Assembly (NCBI GenBank): GCA_964571855.1
Contig: CAZNDO010000016.1
Coordinates: 4,601-68,600 of the forward strand
Direction of reading: 5' to 3'
From: an uncultured Gemmatimonadota bacterium
GTDB lineage: Bacteria; ARS69
Length of the DNA: 64,000 nucleotides
Shown here piece by piece: positions 5,843 through 26,716 of the stretch (positions are counted from its first letter, which is position 1; each line of letters opens with the position of its first letter). The translations under genes were made by a program, and so were the position numbers. The notes under the pieces are model-generated. The model searched no databases, was not told the origin of the DNA, and worked only from the letters and a program-made list of their open reading frames with translations.

Positions 5843-6726
5843 CGCCGGTGTCAGGTCTCACGGAAGGCATCCGCGCCATCGTGCGCGCGCGGGCCGCGGC
5901 GCGCCTGCCGGCGCACGCCGCGCGGCCCTTCCCCGGCTCGCGTTCCGGCGGGGAGTCCGGCTTCCCTTGTGCCGCATCGGGGTCGACCTCCGCGGTCGGC
6001 CCGCCGGTGGCAGGCGCCGAGCCGGGTCCGGACGGTCTCCTGGACGTGCGGCGTCACGCGGGCGAGCTGCTGCCCGGCGTGGATCTCGCCGCGGAGATGC
6101 GGGACGCGCTGGCCACGCTCGGCGCCACGGCCGCCGAGGAGCTGCCGAAGGGACTGCGGCCCGCGCGCGGCGTCGCGCTGGAGGATCTGGCCGTCCTGGA
6201 CCTGGAGACCACCGGTTTCTGGGGATGCCCCGTGCTGCTCGCGGGGCTCCTGCACGTGGAGGACGGGGAGCTGGTCACGCGGCAGATCGTGGCCACGGAC
6301 TACCCGGCGGAGGGCCCGCTGGTCGCGGCCACGCTCGCGGCGCTCGCGCCGCGCCGCCTGCTCGTCACGTTCAACGGCAAGTCCTACGACGTGCCGTGCC
6401 TGCGGGAGCGCTGCGTCGTGCACCGCGTGCCGGACGACGTCACCGCGCGACTCGCGCACGTGGACATCCTGCATCCCGCGCGCCGGCACTGGAAGGGCCG
6501 CTTCGAGAACTGCCGTCTCACCACGCTGGAACGGCGCGTCGTGGGCTTCACGCGCGTGGGCGACGTTCCCAGCCACGAGGTGCCGGAGCGCTTCCACCGC
6601 TTCATCGCCACGCGGGACCCGGCGCAGCTCGCCCCGGTGCTGCACCACGGACGCGTGGACCTGCTCACCACCGCGCGCCTCTTCGCGCGGCTGGCCGCCG
6701 CCGCCCGGGACACGCCGGCGGACTGA
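5839..6726 (+). CDS. RNase-H-like 3'-5' exonuclease (YprB/MrfB-like DEDDh), translationally coupled to the helicase.
   Basis: The GTG start overlaps the helicase stop (GTGA). Motif LAVLDLETTGF is Exo motif I. The second acidic block is LVTFNGKSYDVPCL. A His motif sits near the C-terminus (HRFIATRD...HHGRVD). Confidence 0.7.
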   Translation: MTPVSGLTEGIRAIVRARAAARLPAHAARPFPGSRSGGESGFPCAASGSTSAVGPPVAGAEPGPDGLLDVRRHAGELLPGVDLAAEMRDALATLGATAAEELPKGLRPARGVALEDLAVLDLETTGFWGCPVLLAGLLHVEDGELVTRQIVATDYPAEGPLVAATLAALAPRRLLVTFNGKSYDVPCLRERCVVHRVPDDVTARLAHVDILHPARRHWKGRFENCRLTTLERRVVGFTRVGDVPSHEVPERFHRFIATRDPAQLAPVLHHGRVDLLTTARLFARLAAAARDTPAD

Positions 6727-6812
6727 CCCGCGTTGTCGGATGTCCGGTTTCGCGCCCGTTCGGCGCGTCTTCCTTCCACACGCCCGCAACCCGCGGGAAG
6801 AAGGAGGGGGAC

Positions 6813-7376
6813 ATGCCGTCCGTGAAGGCCCAGTGCATCGTGTGCCGGCGCGCCGCGTTGCTCACCTGCGTCACGAACTTCGCCGGGGTCGGCCCCGGCC
6901 ACTCCGCGCTCGCCCTGGACGGGTACGTATACACGTTCGAGCGCGTCTCCGGCGCGTGGCTCGTGCCCGGCGGGAGCGCCTGGCTGCAGATCCCCGTGAA
7001 GGACTACCTCGCGGCGAACACGCACCGCCCGGTGATCGTCCAGGAGCTGGACGCGGCGCGGGCCGACGCGACCGCCATGCGGGAGTACATCGTGGAGTCG
7101 GATCTGGCCGACGCGGACTACGGCTCGAGCGGCGTCTGCAGCCAGCAGGCGGCCTCCGCGCTGGGCGCCGGACTGGACGCGCGCATCGATCCGATCGGTC
7201 TGAACTCGCCGTACCGCATCTACCGGCACCTCAAGCACACGGGCGCCGTGTCACGCTCGTACCACACGTTCCCGGGCCGGGGTGCGGCGATGGTGGGGAA
7301 GAACGTCCTGCTCGGCTACCTGTACTCGCCGGAGTGCGAGCGGCACGAGAGCGCGCCGCCCATCCTCGCCTGGTAG
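6813..7376 (+). CDS. Hypothetical protein (187 aa) with a conserved His...Cys pair.
   Basis: RBS GAAGGAGGGGG sits 5 nt before the ATG. Coding-like codon usage. Motifs GHSALALDGYVYTF and SSGVCSQQAASALGAG. No family recognised with confidence. Confidence 0.5.
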   Translation: MPSVKAQCIVCRRAALLTCVTNFAGVGPGHSALALDGYVYTFERVSGAWLVPGGSAWLQIPVKDYLAANTHRPVIVQELDAARADATAMREYIVESDLADADYGSSGVCSQQAASALGAGLDARIDPIGLNSPYRIYRHLKHTGAVSRSYHTFPGRGAAMVGKNVLLGYLYSPECERHESAPPILAW

Positions 7377-7388
7377 CGGCGGCGCGCA

Positions 7389-7411
7389 GGGGCGCACAGG
7401 ATGTGCGCCCC
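7389..7411. terminator. Bidirectional hairpin between convergent genes (GGGGCGCACA-gga-TGTGCGCCCC). A second hairpin lies at about 7445-7468.
   Basis: A perfect 10-bp GC-rich stem in the 100-nt gap between the + gene ending at 7376 and pirin ending at 7478. Confidence 0.4.
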
Positions 7412-7477
7412 GCGCCGTCCGGTCCGAGGCAAGGGCCCCGGCCGCCCCGGGAAGTTCGCCACTTCCGGGATGCGACA

Positions 7478-16571: not shown

Positions 16572-17049
16572 GACCGAACCTCCATGTCCGGAGCGGGAAG
16601 GTCCGGCGGGTCCGGCCGCCCTGGAGGCGGAGCGCGGGCACGCGCGGAGCGGTTCCTTCCTCATCGACCGAATCTCGCACCGGCTTGACGATTCCGGAAG
16701 GGCCGGGGGACGACAAATGTGCAAGAAGCGCGAAATCAAGCGGTTGGCCGGGGCGGCGGCGGGCCCCGAGGGACCGGGAACGGTGCAACCGCTTCGCGGG
16801 GGGCGTTCGGGGGCGGCCAGGCCGGAGGGCAATGCCCCCCGGTTGGTTGCCGGCGAGCTTCCGACGACTCGCGAACCGCGCGACGCGGTTCCGCCCGGTG
16901 GGGCGGTTTCGCGCGCGGCTCGACGCTTCGCGAGTTCACCGCGCGCACGCGCGGCGCCGTTCGTGCGACACGCGCGGCGCGAGTGCATCGCCGGCGTGGT
17001 GCGCACACACCGGCGCACGCCGCGGTCGCTTGACGCTTCGGCATCCGTT

Positions 17050-17079
17050 TCCCTATCATGGGTTCGTCGGCGTGAGCCG
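17050..17079 (+). promoter_or_regulatory. Sigma-70-like promoter candidate: TTGACG, an 18-nt spacer, then TATCAT.
   Basis: Both hexamers are close to consensus and sit in a locally lower-GC gene-free stretch. A second GCTTGACG(A/C)TTC copy lies about 345 nt upstream, near 16683. Confidence 0.3.
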
Positions 17080-17086
17080 ACGACGG

Positions 17087-17312
17087 GAATCGGGCCCTGC
17101 AGTGCACGACGTGGGTCGCGATAAAATTGAACCGAATGACTCGCCCAAGGGAGCTCTACATCCGGTTGGGACGTCCACGGCCTTCGCGGCATGAGGACTG
17201 AACGGACCGTGCGAGCACCCACTTGGAGTCCACGGGTCAAGCGTCGCGGCTCCGGACGTCACGGCGGGGCACCGATCCCGAAAGGGCGCGCTCTGCGCGC
17301 CCTTTCTCCGTT
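17087..17312 (+). ncRNA. Candidate small RNA, or a structured leader of the downstream hydrolase (about 225 nt), bounded by the promoter above and a perfect palindromic terminator.
   Basis: Locally reduced GC (gggtcgcgataaaattgaaccgaatgactcgcc). No credible ORF. It ends in the hairpin AAAGGGCGCGC-tct-GCGCGCCCTTT, followed by tctccgtt. Confidence 0.25.
17281..17305 (+). terminator. Perfect 11-bp palindromic hairpin with a 3-nt loop, followed by a T-containing tail.
   Basis: AAAGGGCGCGC tct GCGCGCCCTTT ctccgttcc. It sits 15 nt upstream of the preferred hydrolase start. Confidence 0.45.
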
Positions 17313-18846: not shown

Positions 18847-19052
18847 CGCCATCCCTCCCGTGCTCACCGCGCGAACAGCACTGCAAGGTCGGTGCCAGAC
18901 CGTCCGGAGCGCGGGGATTGCGAATCCTGCCCCGGATCAACCAAGAATCGGCCTTCCGGTTCCCCGGACGCCGGGCCCGCAAGGGCCCCCCGGCGGGAAA
19001 CGACCGGCCGGGTGTGGCGTTCTGCACGGGCGCGCGCCTGCGGGAGCGTTTC

Positions 19053-19892
19053 GTGACGGAGTTCACGAGCGGCCCGGGGGCGGTGCGCATCGGCTTCGCG
19101 CAGACCCGGCCGGTCTTCGGGCAGCGGGCGGCGAACCTCGAGGCGGCGGCTCGCCTCGTGGACGCGGCCGTCGCGTTCGACGTCCTCGTGCTTCCGGAGC
19201 TCTTCTCCACGGGGTACCTGTTCCTGTCCCGCGAGGAGGTGGGCGCGGCGGGCGAGGACACGGGCGGGCCCACGGTGACCTTCCTGCGCGACACGGCGCG
19301 GCGGCGCGGCGCCTGGCTCTGCGGGGGTTTCGCGGAACGGGCGGGCCGGGCGCTCTACAACGCGGCCGCCCTGGCCGGCCCCGGCGGCGAGCTGCACGTC
19401 TACCGGAAGGTGCATCTCTTCGATCGCGAGACGGAGGTGTTCGATCCGGGCGACCGGCCGTTCCACGCGATCCCCGTGCGCGCCGGCGGCGTGGACTTCC
19501 GCGCGGGGATGATGATCTGCTTCGACTGGCTCTTCCCCGAGGCCGCGCGCTGTCTCGCGCTCGACGGCGCGGACGTCCTCCTGCACCCGTCCAATCTGGT
19601 GCTGCCGTTCTGCCAGGACGCGATGTCCACGCGCTGCCTGGAGAACCGCGTGTTCGCCGTGACCGCGAACCGCAGCGGCGAGGACGTGCGCGGCGCCGAG
19701 CGCCTGGCATTCACCGGCTCCAGCCAGATCACCGGTCCGCGCGGCGACATCCTCGTGCGCGCGGCCAGCGCCGGCGAGTGCGTGGAGGTCGTGACGATCG
19801 ACCCGCTGCGCGCGCGCGACAAGCGGGTCACCGCGCGCAACGACCTGCTCGGGAGCCGGCGTCCCGACGTGTACGGGGCGCTCGCGGAGTAG
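19053..19892 (+). CDS. Carbon-nitrogen hydrolase family protein (nitrilase/amidase superfamily).
   Basis: The catalytic triad context: E in VLVLPELFSTGY, K in HVYRKVHLFD, and C in MMICFDWLFPE. GTG start at 19053. The track start at 18918 adds an Arg/Pro-rich head. Confidence 0.75.
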   Translation: MTEFTSGPGAVRIGFAQTRPVFGQRAANLEAAARLVDAAVAFDVLVLPELFSTGYLFLSREEVGAAGEDTGGPTVTFLRDTARRRGAWLCGGFAERAGRALYNAAALAGPGGELHVYRKVHLFDRETEVFDPGDRPFHAIPVRAGGVDFRAGMMICFDWLFPEAARCLALDGADVLLHPSNLVLPFCQDAMSTRCLENRVFAVTANRSGEDVRGAERLAFTGSSQITGPRGDILVRAASAGECVEVVTIDPLRARDKRVTARNDLLGSRRPDVYGALAE

Positions 19893-20479
19893 ACGGCGCG
19901 GCAGGCCGACCCCGCGGGGGGCGCGACAGCCAGGGGTCCGCACCCGCCGCGACGTGTCCACGGGCGACGACACCGTGACGCCGGACGTTGTCGCGATCCA
20001 TGTGCTTGGTGCCGGGTCGGTTGCGCGACGGATCGCCCTGCGGGTGTCGCCGCTGGTTGCCGTCTGTCGTCGCGCGCGGATCACGTCGTGCTGCGGAAGA
20101 ACGCGCGAGGGGCGGCGTGGAGCGCGGTTCCGGGCGGATCCGTCGATGTCCGGCGCTTCGGCCCGGTCATTGCAATGGTGCGCGCGCGGGAGATGAGCGG
20201 AAGCGGAAGCGGAAGGGACGAAGGGCGGGCCGCACGCTTCGGCGTCGGGTCCGCGGGGACTGGACCGGCGGCCCGCCCCTTCGTCCGAGTCGCCCCGGGG
20301 GAGGGCGTTGGCCAGGCCCTTCCCCGTTGCAGAGAGCCGGGAGCGTTCCGCGAGGAGATTCCTCGAACCGACAGGCGTAGCCGGGGAGATGCGCCGATCG
20401 GTTGGAACGCTCCCGGCCGTACTTCCCGGGAACACCGCCACCCGCGCCACCACCACCCAGGAGCACGCACACGGCGCAG

Positions 20480-20770
20480 GTCCGCGGGACACTCGGGAAC
20501 CGCCGCGGGGTCGTGGGGCGAGTCACGCGCCGGGCGGGTGTGCGATGCGCGTTCCTCCGTCCCCGACCCTTGCTCCGGCGGCGTCGCGGAGGGGCCGTAG
20601 CCATGGATGGCGGAGGCCCCGGAGCGCCGAGGCCCAGGGCGCGCATGGATGCGCGCCCGCGCCGTCCGGTCCGGAGCAAGGGTCGGGGACGGAGGAACGC
20701 GCATCGCGCACCCGGCCCGGCGCGTGACTCGCCCCGCGACCCCGCGGCGGTTCCCGAATGTCCCGCGGAC
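20480..20770. repeat. Long near-perfect inverted repeat (about 100-bp arms, about 92-bp spacer) abutting the cdaA stop codon. MITE-like or giant 3'-UTR hairpin.
   Basis: Left arm 20480-20578 matches the reverse complement of 20671-20770 at about 96/100 positions. The spacer contains the palindrome GGCGCGCATGGATGCGCGCC. Spurious ORFs on both strands carry mirror-image peptides (GPEQGSGTEERAS). Confidence 0.6.
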
Positions 20771-21538
20771 CTATGCCGCGTGCGCGCGACGTTCGAACGC
20801 CGCGTGCAGCAACGCGCGGAGGGACTCGCGCGTGAGGTTGCGGGTGAGCTGCCCGCCCTTCGCGTGCGACACGGTGCCGGTCTCCTCGGAGACCACCACC
20901 ACGTCGCAGTCGGCCTCCTCGGTGATCCCGATGGCGGCGCGGTGGCGCGTGCCGAGCGCGCGGGAGAGGCGCGGATCCTGCGTGAGGGGGAGGATGCACC
21001 CCGCGGCCACGATCTGGTCGCCCTGCACGATGACGGCGCCGTCGTGCAGGGGGCTGCGAGTCTGGAAGATGGAGATGAGCAGTTCCTCGCTCGGGCGGGC
21101 GTACAGCGGCGTGCCGGTCTCGATCACGCCCTTCAGCCCGGCCTGGCCGAGCACCACGATGAGCGCGCCCGTGCGCGCCTCGGCCAGCTCGAACACCGCG
21201 TTGACCAGGAGGTCCACGGCCTCCTGCGCCTCGCCGCGCGTCACGAACGGCCGCACGATCGGGTGCTGTCCCAGCTTGGACAGCGCGCGGCGGAGCTCCG
21301 GCTGGAACACGATGAGGAAGCCGATGAGCCAGATCGTCTTCAGGCTGCCGATGATCCAGCTCAGCGCGTGCAACCCGAGGAACCCGGACAGGAACCCCGC
21401 GCCGATGATCACGAGGAGTCCGAGGAACATCGTGACGGCGCGCGTGGAGCGGATGAACATGTAGAGCTTGTAGAAGAGGACCGTCACGATCCCCACGTCC
21501 AGGATGTCCAGGACCCAGTGGATGCCGAGCAGGCTCAC
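20771..21538 (-). CDS. cdaA: Diadenylate cyclase (c-di-AMP synthase) CdaA.
   Basis: N-terminal transmembrane helices (ILDVGIVTVLFYKLYMFIRSTRA..). DisA_N motifs DGAVIVQGDQIVAAGCILP and TRHRAAIGITEEADCDVVVVSEETG. The GTG start overlaps the folP stop. Confidence 0.8.
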   Translation of the reverse strand: MSLLGIHWVLDILDVGIVTVLFYKLYMFIRSTRAVTMFLGLLVIIGAGFLSGFLGLHALSWIIGSLKTIWLIGFLIVFQPELRRALSKLGQHPIVRPFVTRGEAQEAVDLLVNAVFELAEARTGALIVVLGQAGLKGVIETGTPLYARPSEELLISIFQTRSPLHDGAVIVQGDQIVAAGCILPLTQDPRLSRALGTRHRAAIGITEEADCDVVVVSEETGTVSHAKGGQLTRNLTRESLRALLHAAFERRAHAA

Positions 21539-26504: not shown

Positions 26505-26642
26505 GGGCGCCCCGCGGCCCGGGGCGTGAGGGCCGGCACGAGGATCCGGCCGTGCTGCCGGGAACCCGCGGCCGGGGGCCCGGTGGCCGGAGGACTGGAG
26601 GCCGCCGAAGGGTGATCGGCGCCAAGCGGCCCCGCGATGGGG

Positions 26643-26716
26643 TAGCGGTGCAGGGATTCGAACCCCGGACACGCGGATTATGATTCCGCTGCTCTAACCA
26701 ACTGAGCTACACCGCC
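26643..26716 (-). tRNA. tRNA with anticodon CAU (elongator Met or lysidine-modified Ile2). It is not the initiator.
   Basis: Cloverleaf GGCGGTG-TA-GCTC-AGTTGGTTA-GAGC-A-GCGGA-aTCATAa-TCCGC-GTGTC-CGGGG-TTCGAAT-CCCTG-CACCGCTA. CCA is not encoded. It lacks the three G-C pairs of the initiator anticodon stem. It lies about 140 nt from the tilS start. Confidence 0.8.

Follow-up and report, generated by a model that had tools for sequence, protein, structure and literature searches.

How does a long palindrome come to lie across the end of a gene, and what keeps its two arms alike? The question is raised by a 325-bp interrupted palindrome at the 3' end of cdaA, the diadenylate cyclase gene, in an uncultured Gemmatimonadota bacterium. 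The locus was analysed in a stretch of 64,000 nucleotides, here called the window (assembly GCA_964571855.1, contig CAZNDO010000016.1, positions 4,601 to 68,600 of the forward strand). All positions without a contig name refer to the window. With a probability of about one half, the palindrome is a young, strain-variable repeat of a REP/REPIN-like and MITE-like kind (MITE, a miniature transposable element with inverted repeats), nested in an older stem-loop at the cdaA 3' end. The palindrome is an ordinary kind of bacterial repeat rather than a new system, and by itself it reveals no new mechanism.

Geometry and predicted fold of the palindrome

The palindrome spans positions 20463–20787 and consists of two arms around a 67-nt core, as delimited by gapped alignment of the arms and by the predicted fold. 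Like its arms, core and inner part, it is annotated without a strand. The left arm (20463–20589, 127 nt) lies on the cdaA-distal side. The right arm (20657–20787, 131 nt) adjoins cdaA and covers its last five codons and the stop codon. The arms are identical at 119 of 131 alignment columns, and the 12 differing columns comprise seven transitions, one transversion and four gap positions. The 64 kb searched hold no second inverted repeat of such a class.

An earlier note on this DNA had described arms of about 100 bp (20480–20578 and 20671–20770), complementary at about 96% and separated by a spacer of about 92 nt with a palindrome of its own. These segments are identical at 96 of 100 positions, and the 92-nt spacer contains GGCGCGCATGGATGCGCGCC at 20638–20657. 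The repeat was correctly recognized, but its arms were drawn too short. The inner arm ends are joined into the alignment via three small indels, and the inner arms are identical at 99 of 107 positions. The element does lie at the 3' end of cdaA, downstream of the gene, which is on the minus strand. The right arm had been thought to end at the cdaA stop codon. This codon (TAG at 20771–20773, read as cta on the plus strand) does adjoin position 20770, but the pairing runs 17 nt further into the gene.

The outermost stem is formed by positions 20771–20787, which on the minus strand encode R-A-H-A-A-TAG of cdaA, and positions 20463–20479. Thirteen of these 17 positions are identical, and 16 of 17 are paired in the cdaA-sense RNA if G-U pairs are counted. 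By hand count, the stem has three G-U pairs and one mismatch in the cdaA-sense RNA versus one G-U pair and three mismatches on the opposite strand. This stem represents the older layer of the hairpin described below.

The core (20590–20656) is not symmetric in sequence. Folding of both strands of 20585–20665, together with pattern matching, yields two small hairpins, each centred on CATGGATG: hairpin A at 20591–20620 (GGGGCC..GCCATGGATGGC..GGCCCC) and hairpin B at 20637–20658 (GGGCGCGCATGGATGCGCGCCC). The earlier note had expected a long RNA stem if the element is transcribed with cdaA, and computed folds agree with it. The predicted minimum free energy is -345.1 kcal/mol for the cdaA-sense RNA and -336.7 kcal/mol for the plus strand (z = -22.9 and -22.2, respectively), with dinucleotide shuffles at about -210 +/- 6 kcal/mol.

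Mirror-image pseudo-peptides in the six reading frames had been taken as confirmation of the symmetry. They do follow from it, but they signify nothing more. The frames of the element, searched as a concatenated three-frame translation against 5.8 billion proteins, have no homologue at E <= 1e-3, and a reading as coding sequence was ruled out on this ground. In Rfam, nothing was found at E <= 1 in 19800–21200 and nothing at gathering score near the element.

The palindrome in independent assemblies

Assemblers are known to fail at long palindromes, and a fold-back chimera in the source contig would produce a feature of this kind. This alternative has a negligible probability and is effectively refuted by independent contigs. 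The left flank and left arm are reproduced by the Logan contig L012 (SRR34519444), which is 100% identical up to its end inside the arm. The cdaA gene and right arm are reproduced by L016 (ERR2586215, 100%) and by L017 (SRR34519444) and L004 (about 97% in the arm). Both arm-core junctions are present in L002, L005 and L006, which carry other right-arm alleles. Furthermore, the arms differ from one another at the 12 alignment columns given above. Since both arms, both junctions and the flanks recur in independent assemblies of several samples, the palindrome is real DNA and not an assembly artefact.

All examined short-read contigs break within or just past an arm, as is expected of de Bruijn-graph assemblers at long inverted repeats. 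The locus is of relevance to metagenome assembly for this reason.

The cdaA 3' end in related genomes

The orthologous site was compared in relatives ordered by the nucleotide identity of their cdaA to that of the window. At 100–99.9% identity (the window itself, L016 and L017) the stop codon is followed by long arms. The same is found at 96.5% (L002–L006, of which L003 shows only a 13-nt stub). At 92.6% (L013) an 85-nt imperfect hairpin follows, with an outer stem as in the window. At 89.6% (L021) 12 nt lead from the stop codon to a neighbouring conserved RNA, and at 86% (L018) an unrelated 37-nt hairpin is present. At 84% and 83% (L009 and L011, respectively) the site is empty. Long arms are confined to one narrow lineage, in which cdaA is identical to that of the window at 96.5% or more of its nucleotides. 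As close relatives lack the element, it is dispensable.

In L013, the hairpin's outer 18 bp (one of them a U-G pair) are the outermost stem of the window, composed of the last cdaA codons and the stop codon with their inverted copy. The CdaA C-terminus ...ERRAHAA is common to relatives without the long repeat. Therefore the right outer end of the palindrome is coding sequence of ancestral origin, and an inverted copy of it forms the left outer end. Simple insertion of a transposon does not explain a palindrome whose left end copies the gene end in this manner. The older outer stem is about 17–24 bp long and takes in the conserved C-terminus. Comparison of the spacers of the window, L013, L021, L018, L009 and L011 places the lineage-specific inner insert or expansion at about 20487–20763 (approximate boundaries). 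As judged from these alignments, the feature is nested: the loop of an older end-of-gene hairpin is occupied by a symmetric insert of about 277 bp.

The outer stem invites a reading in which the structure is selected as RNA in the cdaA 3' untranslated region, serving mRNA stability, termination of the operon or termination of a convergent RNA, and in which covariation of the arms reflects selection on pairing. The better pairing of the window's outer stem in the cdaA sense is in line with it, as are the predicted energies of the L013 hairpin (-90.6 kcal/mol in the cdaA sense versus -75.9 kcal/mol on the opposite strand). The outer stem also shows a compensatory change, with GGCCCG/CGGGCC (C-G) in L013 and GGTCCG/CGGACC (U-A) in the window, and several lineages have some hairpin after the stop codon. 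The inner arms, on the other hand, show no strand bias, and both strands fold nearly equally well. By hand count, the transitions between the long arms give four G-U pairs on the minus strand and three on the plus strand. L021, L009 and L011 have no hairpin at all. There is no U-tract, although the 6S RNA gene of the window has a hairpin with a U-rich tail. Moreover, a duplex of 128 bp far exceeds what any known terminator or stabilizer needs. RNA duplexes of about this length (~128 bp) are expected substrates of RNase III, so that cleavage would be anticipated. Because the arm differences lack a G-U strand bias and the innermost 25–30 nt change in concert (see below), selection at the RNA level is unlikely.

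Stop-adjacent stems after cdaA are also found in more distant relatives (L007 10772–10880, L008 2829–2930 and L018 2840–2880). The L007 stem, AGTCCGGC...GCCGGACT, encloses a direct repeat of CCGCCGCACACT (two copies). Separate lineages seem to have gained different hairpins here on separate occasions.

Arm alleles and concerted change

Three arm alleles occur in strains whose cdaA differs by 0–9 nt of 768. Type W is found in the window, L004, L016 and L017, type X in L002 and L006 (about 85% identical to W) and type Y in L005 (about 75% identical to W). The arms of the three types diverge by about 13–25%. All of them keep the outer module TAGGTCCGCGGGACAYYCGGGAACCG as well as the inner module TCCKCCGTCCCCGRCCCTTGCTCCGG with the junction, and the variation lies in the middle ~55 nt of the arm. 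A comparison of L017 with the window shows 3 differences in 93 positions of the right arm and 1 in the 768 of cdaA.

L004 has a P0001-type cdaA up to nt 699, followed by a W-type 3' end and arm. The W-type arm is thus present on two cdaA backgrounds that are 3.5% apart (L004 814–1666 compared with the window and L002), with the breakpoint at cdaA nt 700–765. A switch so near the gene end means that alleles were swapped between strains by recombination there, and the aligned sequences suggest that the element region is exchanged between strains.

The two type-X contigs share a pair of inner-arm substitutions, which are joined to the left junction in L002 and to the right junction in L006. Both arms have therefore changed together, at least in their innermost 25–30 nt. 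For types X and Y no left arm was recovered, as the contigs of the CN-hydrolase cluster (the gene on the far side of the palindrome) end 50–76 nt past that gene.

The two type-X contigs, L002 (2505–2647, SRR26685671) and L006 (853–985, SRR26685667), come from sister samples and carry the same arm, running into opposite ends of the core. This pattern is what an invertible DNA switch would produce, in which the 67-nt core is flipped by recombination between the 128-bp arms. The contrast reflects either a true inversion or an ambiguity of the assembly graph, and the latter explains it equally well, since a de Bruijn-graph assembler gives the same pattern if the arms are identical over the k-mer length. 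Furthermore, a flip would alter little, because the core is structurally near symmetric and has no promoter-like site; no sigma-70-like site was found in 19500–21500, and hence no promoter inside the core segment as in an inverton. No invertase was seen, and no search for one was made. A switch is very unlikely.

A related module downstream of a pirin gene

The earlier note had called for a search of the genome for dispersed copies. Searches of the window and of public collections found a partial copy at 7375–7435 (plus strand) and no further full copy. The partial copy was found by blastn, by nhmmer and through a shared 25-mer. It is 82% identical to the core and inner right arm over 62 nt (blastn, E = 7e-9), the nhmmer match has E = 2.6e-16, and the exact 25-mer in common with the palindrome is expected zero times by chance. 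It comprises a hairpin, GGGGCGCACAGGATGTGCGCCCC, at 7389–7411, followed by CGCGCCGTCCGGTCCGAGGCAAGGG at 7411–7435. The outer module of the palindrome is GTCCGCGGGACAYYCGGGAACCG and the core module CGCGCCGTCCGGTCCGRRGCAAGGG.

The copy lies downstream of a minus-strand pirin gene (confirmed by Pfam), in the same orientation relative to pirin as the palindrome has relative to cdaA. The type-Y allele (L005) is 95% identical to the pirin locus over 41 nt and has the pirin-type hairpin variant. Sequence has therefore moved between the loci. The extended stem at 7375–7435 covers the TAG of a plus-strand open reading frame (ORF; 5967–7376), which has no Pfam hit and is unconfirmed as a gene.

Comparison with known repeat classes

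REP, REPIN and BIME elements resemble the palindrome in being non-coding and intergenic and in lying often between convergent genes. In a REPIN, two inverted units give a long hairpin, and conserved modules flank a stretch in which pairing is kept and sequence is not (PMC3337134); the spacers likewise keep the hairpin without conservation of sequence (PMC3337134). Singlet and doublet forms exist, and the copy at the pirin locus resembles a singlet. Elements of this class can be co-opted as terminators or as stabilizers of mRNA 3' ends. The palindrome differs from them in several respects. With 325 bp it is about 3.5 times as long as the 89-bp REPIN of PMC3337134, its tip is branched into two hairpins, and its conserved end module has no obvious REP-type imperfect palindrome. 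One full and one partial copy in 64 kb do not demonstrate a high copy number. No RAYT gene was identified here, and no RAYT search of the window was made. Membership in the REPIN class cannot be claimed.

The suggestion that the element bears the signature of a MITE holds in part. Like Correia (CREE), ERIC, RUP and Nezha elements, it is small, has inverted termini and no coding capacity, would fold as RNA when co-transcribed and is polymorphic for presence at orthologous sites in close relatives. Long inverted arms, a short non-coding core and the recurrence of the 62-nt module all fit. The arms, however, make up about 80% of the element, compared with terminal repeats of 20–40 bp that are typical of MITEs. 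The outermost 17 bp of pairing are host coding sequence of cdaA, there is no second full copy in the 64 kb, and neither further copies (in the window and the public scans) nor a parent insertion sequence (in the 64 kb) were found. A search for a target-site duplication at 20480/20770 had been suggested. No direct repeat is present there or at the revised ends (20463/20787), and no clean duplication can be read.

A third comparison class consists of terminators and 3'-end stabilizers between convergent genes, including the U-tract-less hairpins proposed for GC-rich bacteria. The palindrome is a GC-rich stem-loop at the last gene of an operon, its stem starts within the gene, 17 nt before the stop codon, and it lies between convergent transcription units, with shorter equivalents at the same place in relatives. 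Its stem of about 128 bp is, on the other hand, far from the 5–20 bp of typical terminators, its tip is branched, and the element is not conserved even in close relatives. There is no terminator-like site in 19500–21500 and no run of three or more T or A in 20380–20880. A canonical intrinsic terminator was ruled out, as no U-tract is present on either strand.

An integron attC site was ruled out as well: GTTRRRY and RYYYAAC are both absent from 20440–20810, and cdaA is a conserved operon gene and not a cassette.

Quasipalindrome hot spots of Escherichia coli share with the palindrome an imperfect inverted repeat with a central spacer, and arms that change fast and appear to be corrected towards one another (PMC7202029, PMC3315005). 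Template switching at quasipalindromes brings imperfect repeats closer to perfection (PMC7202029). In E. coli, interrupted palindromes are drivers of inverted duplications, under the control of SbcCD and RecA (PMC3315005). The E. coli sites are engineered or short natural mutational substrates, whereas here a natural palindrome of 325 bp persists in the wild as several alleles.

Origin and maintenance of the palindrome

The history that we favour is that of a young repeat set into an older stem-loop. As the comparison with L013 shows, the common ancestor of L013 and the window lineage already had a hairpin in which the last cdaA codons and the stop codon pair with their inverted copy. Presence and absence show that a symmetric unit of about 277 bp came to fill the loop in no other lineage than that in which cdaA is at least 96.5% identical, and this produced the arms of about 128 bp around the 67-nt core. 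The inner part probably belongs to a small dispersed family, whose core hairpin, junction and inner arm end recur after pirin. Complementarity of the arms would be kept at the level of DNA, by template switching at the quasipalindrome or by intramolecular gene conversion. The missing strand bias and the near-equal folds of both strands argue for an origin and upkeep of the symmetry at the DNA level. A structured RNA nearby (20296–20417, see below) is clearly strand-specific, in contrast to the long arms.

Several results weigh against this history or against parts of it. The 64 kb of the window hold one full and one partial copy (62 nt); a second full copy or a copy of the outer arm end was not found elsewhere in them. 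A scan of one genome per GTDB species with the shared 25-mer gave a single, chance-like match, in Rhodovulum iodosum. Two exact-pattern scans of JGI metagenomes (core 25-mer and inner-arm 22-mer), an exact-pattern scan of IMG/VR and a plasmid BLAST returned nothing, and no spurious ORFs over related elements were found among 5.8 billion proteins. No parent insertion sequence was seen in the 64 kb, with the transposase look-up confined to a few ORFs. At the inner boundary, the candidate duplication CGCG/CCGCGG is self-complementary and indistinguishable from the inverted repeat itself, so that no unambiguous target-site duplication can be read. The orthologous sites include no clean empty site. 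The 45-nt loop of the L013 hairpin has no detectable kinship to the long element (166 of 500 shuffles scored as well), and its interpretation as a deletion remnant of that element was rejected for the same reason. Judging from the contigs, concerted change is shown only for the innermost 25–30 nt of the arms. Finally, with no U-tract on either side, a terminator role is one that we infer.

The Rhodovulum iodosum match (L001 6039–6063, NZ_JBEHHI010000001.1) is exact over 25 nt and nearly exact over 29 nt. In this alphaproteobacterium a gene starts about 45 nt downstream of the match, which has no hairpin or arm context. It is treated as chance, though the rough expected number is only a few hundredths.

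Some of these results suit local growth of the palindrome, without any mobile element. A small end-of-gene hairpin would have been enlarged stepwise by fold-back priming and template switching, each step copying adjacent sequence in inverted orientation, and what the pirin locus has in common with it would be due to a common terminator-type hairpin or to one ectopic conversion. Only a copying mechanism explains why the left outer end repeats the coding end of cdaA in inverted form. Palindromes of 37, 85 and 325 nt are centred at the same place in different lineages, the arms mutate faster than the gene (the 3/93 and 1/768 differences between the window and L017), and further full copies are missing from the window and from the public scans. 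Template switching is established (PMC7202029), as is the driving of inverted duplications by interrupted palindromes (PMC3315005). Local growth accounts poorly, however, for the 62-nt module in common with a locus 13 kb away (E = 7e-9), which the type-Y allele matches even better. Alleles that vary in the middle and keep their end and inner modules look more like members of a family, and the L013 loop lacks a detectable remnant of the long element. Growth by copying alone is possible but rather unlikely.

Whichever way it arose, the locus is a well-documented natural long interrupted palindrome. Wild populations show the empty site, the 85-nt hairpin and the 325-nt palindrome next to one another, and several alleles occur on near-identical gene backgrounds. 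The origin of long palindromes, the upkeep of their symmetry and their tolerance by bacteria can be studied in this natural system.

Gene context of the palindrome

The cdaA gene (20771–21538, minus strand) encodes a protein of 255 amino acids with the Pfam domains DAC (2.5e-40) and CdaA_N and comes last in ftsH-folP-cdaA. The GTG with which it starts and the TGA stop of folP overlap as GTGA (21535–21538), which suggests translational coupling within this gene group. Homologues of CdaA are from uncultured Gemmatimonadota, and a protein identical to that of the window (P0247) is on record from NCBI and Logan assemblies. A gene for a carbon-nitrogen hydrolase (CN-hydrolase; 18918–19892, plus strand) converges on cdaA. 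The palindrome lies in the 878-bp convergent spacer, directly downstream of cdaA, and the arrangement of the two genes is kept in relatives. The G+C content of the window is 73.7%.

In this position, the element would fold into a hairpin of very high stability, lacking a U-tract, immediately behind ftsH-folP-cdaA. Read-through from cdaA towards the convergent RNA at 20296–20417, and in the opposite direction, would be blocked or processed there, and the element probably acts as an oversized hairpin between the two. Any role as terminator or barrier would be non-canonical, in view of the missing U-tract; the 6S hairpin in the same window does have a U-rich tail. The link of the palindrome to the biology of cyclic di-AMP (c-di-AMP) appears to be positional only.

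A conserved structured RNA convergent with cdaA

Between the CN-hydrolase gene and the palindrome lies a conserved structured RNA motif (20296–20417, plus strand; fold z = -6.2). Its first part is a hairpin in which two G-U pairs are invariant. A three-way junction comes next, and the apical loop of this, GCCGGGGAGA, is invariant too. The motif is present in all eight orthologous cdaA/CN-hydrolase spacers examined (CdaA identity 81–100%). Its 40 pairs are 98.4% paired on the plus strand (including 29 G-U cells) versus 89.7% on the minus strand. Compensatory changes are seen in three of the pairs. The strand of the motif makes it convergent with cdaA. No Rfam family matched it, and no sigma-70-like promoter was found for this RNA.

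In palindrome-free genomes the closing stem of the motif ends 3–12 nt from the cdaA stop codon, and in the window the palindrome separates the two. The palindrome might thus be a lineage-specific insulator between cdaA and an undescribed structured RNA transcribed towards the cdaA 3' end, although we hold this to be decidedly unlikely. If it were true, convergent transcripts would overlap in palindrome-free genomes and could give antisense control of the c-di-AMP synthase, and the palindrome, which evolves fast and may be able to flip, would in some strains uncouple such control or retune it. The motif at 20296–20417 is a more promising lead for new biology than the palindrome.

Just upstream of the motif there is a long hairpin at 20219–20283 (plus strand; CGAAGGGCGGGCCGC...GGCGGCCCGCCCCTTCG). 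By eye it is conserved in L013, and similar, diverged hairpins are seen in L021, L018 and L009. A conserved TTGCAA-like box (20170–20175) and a mini-tandem of (GCGGAA)x3 (20197–20214) precede it. With these parts included, the RNA may reach a length of about 230 nt.

Other RNA genes of the window

A 6S RNA gene (ssrS) was located at 17091–17274 (plus strand) with 42.4 bits, compared with an Rfam gathering threshold of 46.4 (E = 2.2e-7). It has a promoter at 17030–17059 (TTGACG-18-TATCAT) and a terminator-type hairpin with a U-rich tail at 17280–17306, and L018 has a conserved counterpart. An ORF listed with its start at 17223 overlaps the 6S gene, and its true start must be a later one. The only tRNA of the window, tRNA-Met (CAT) at 26641–26716 (minus strand), is also its only match at the Rfam gathering threshold.

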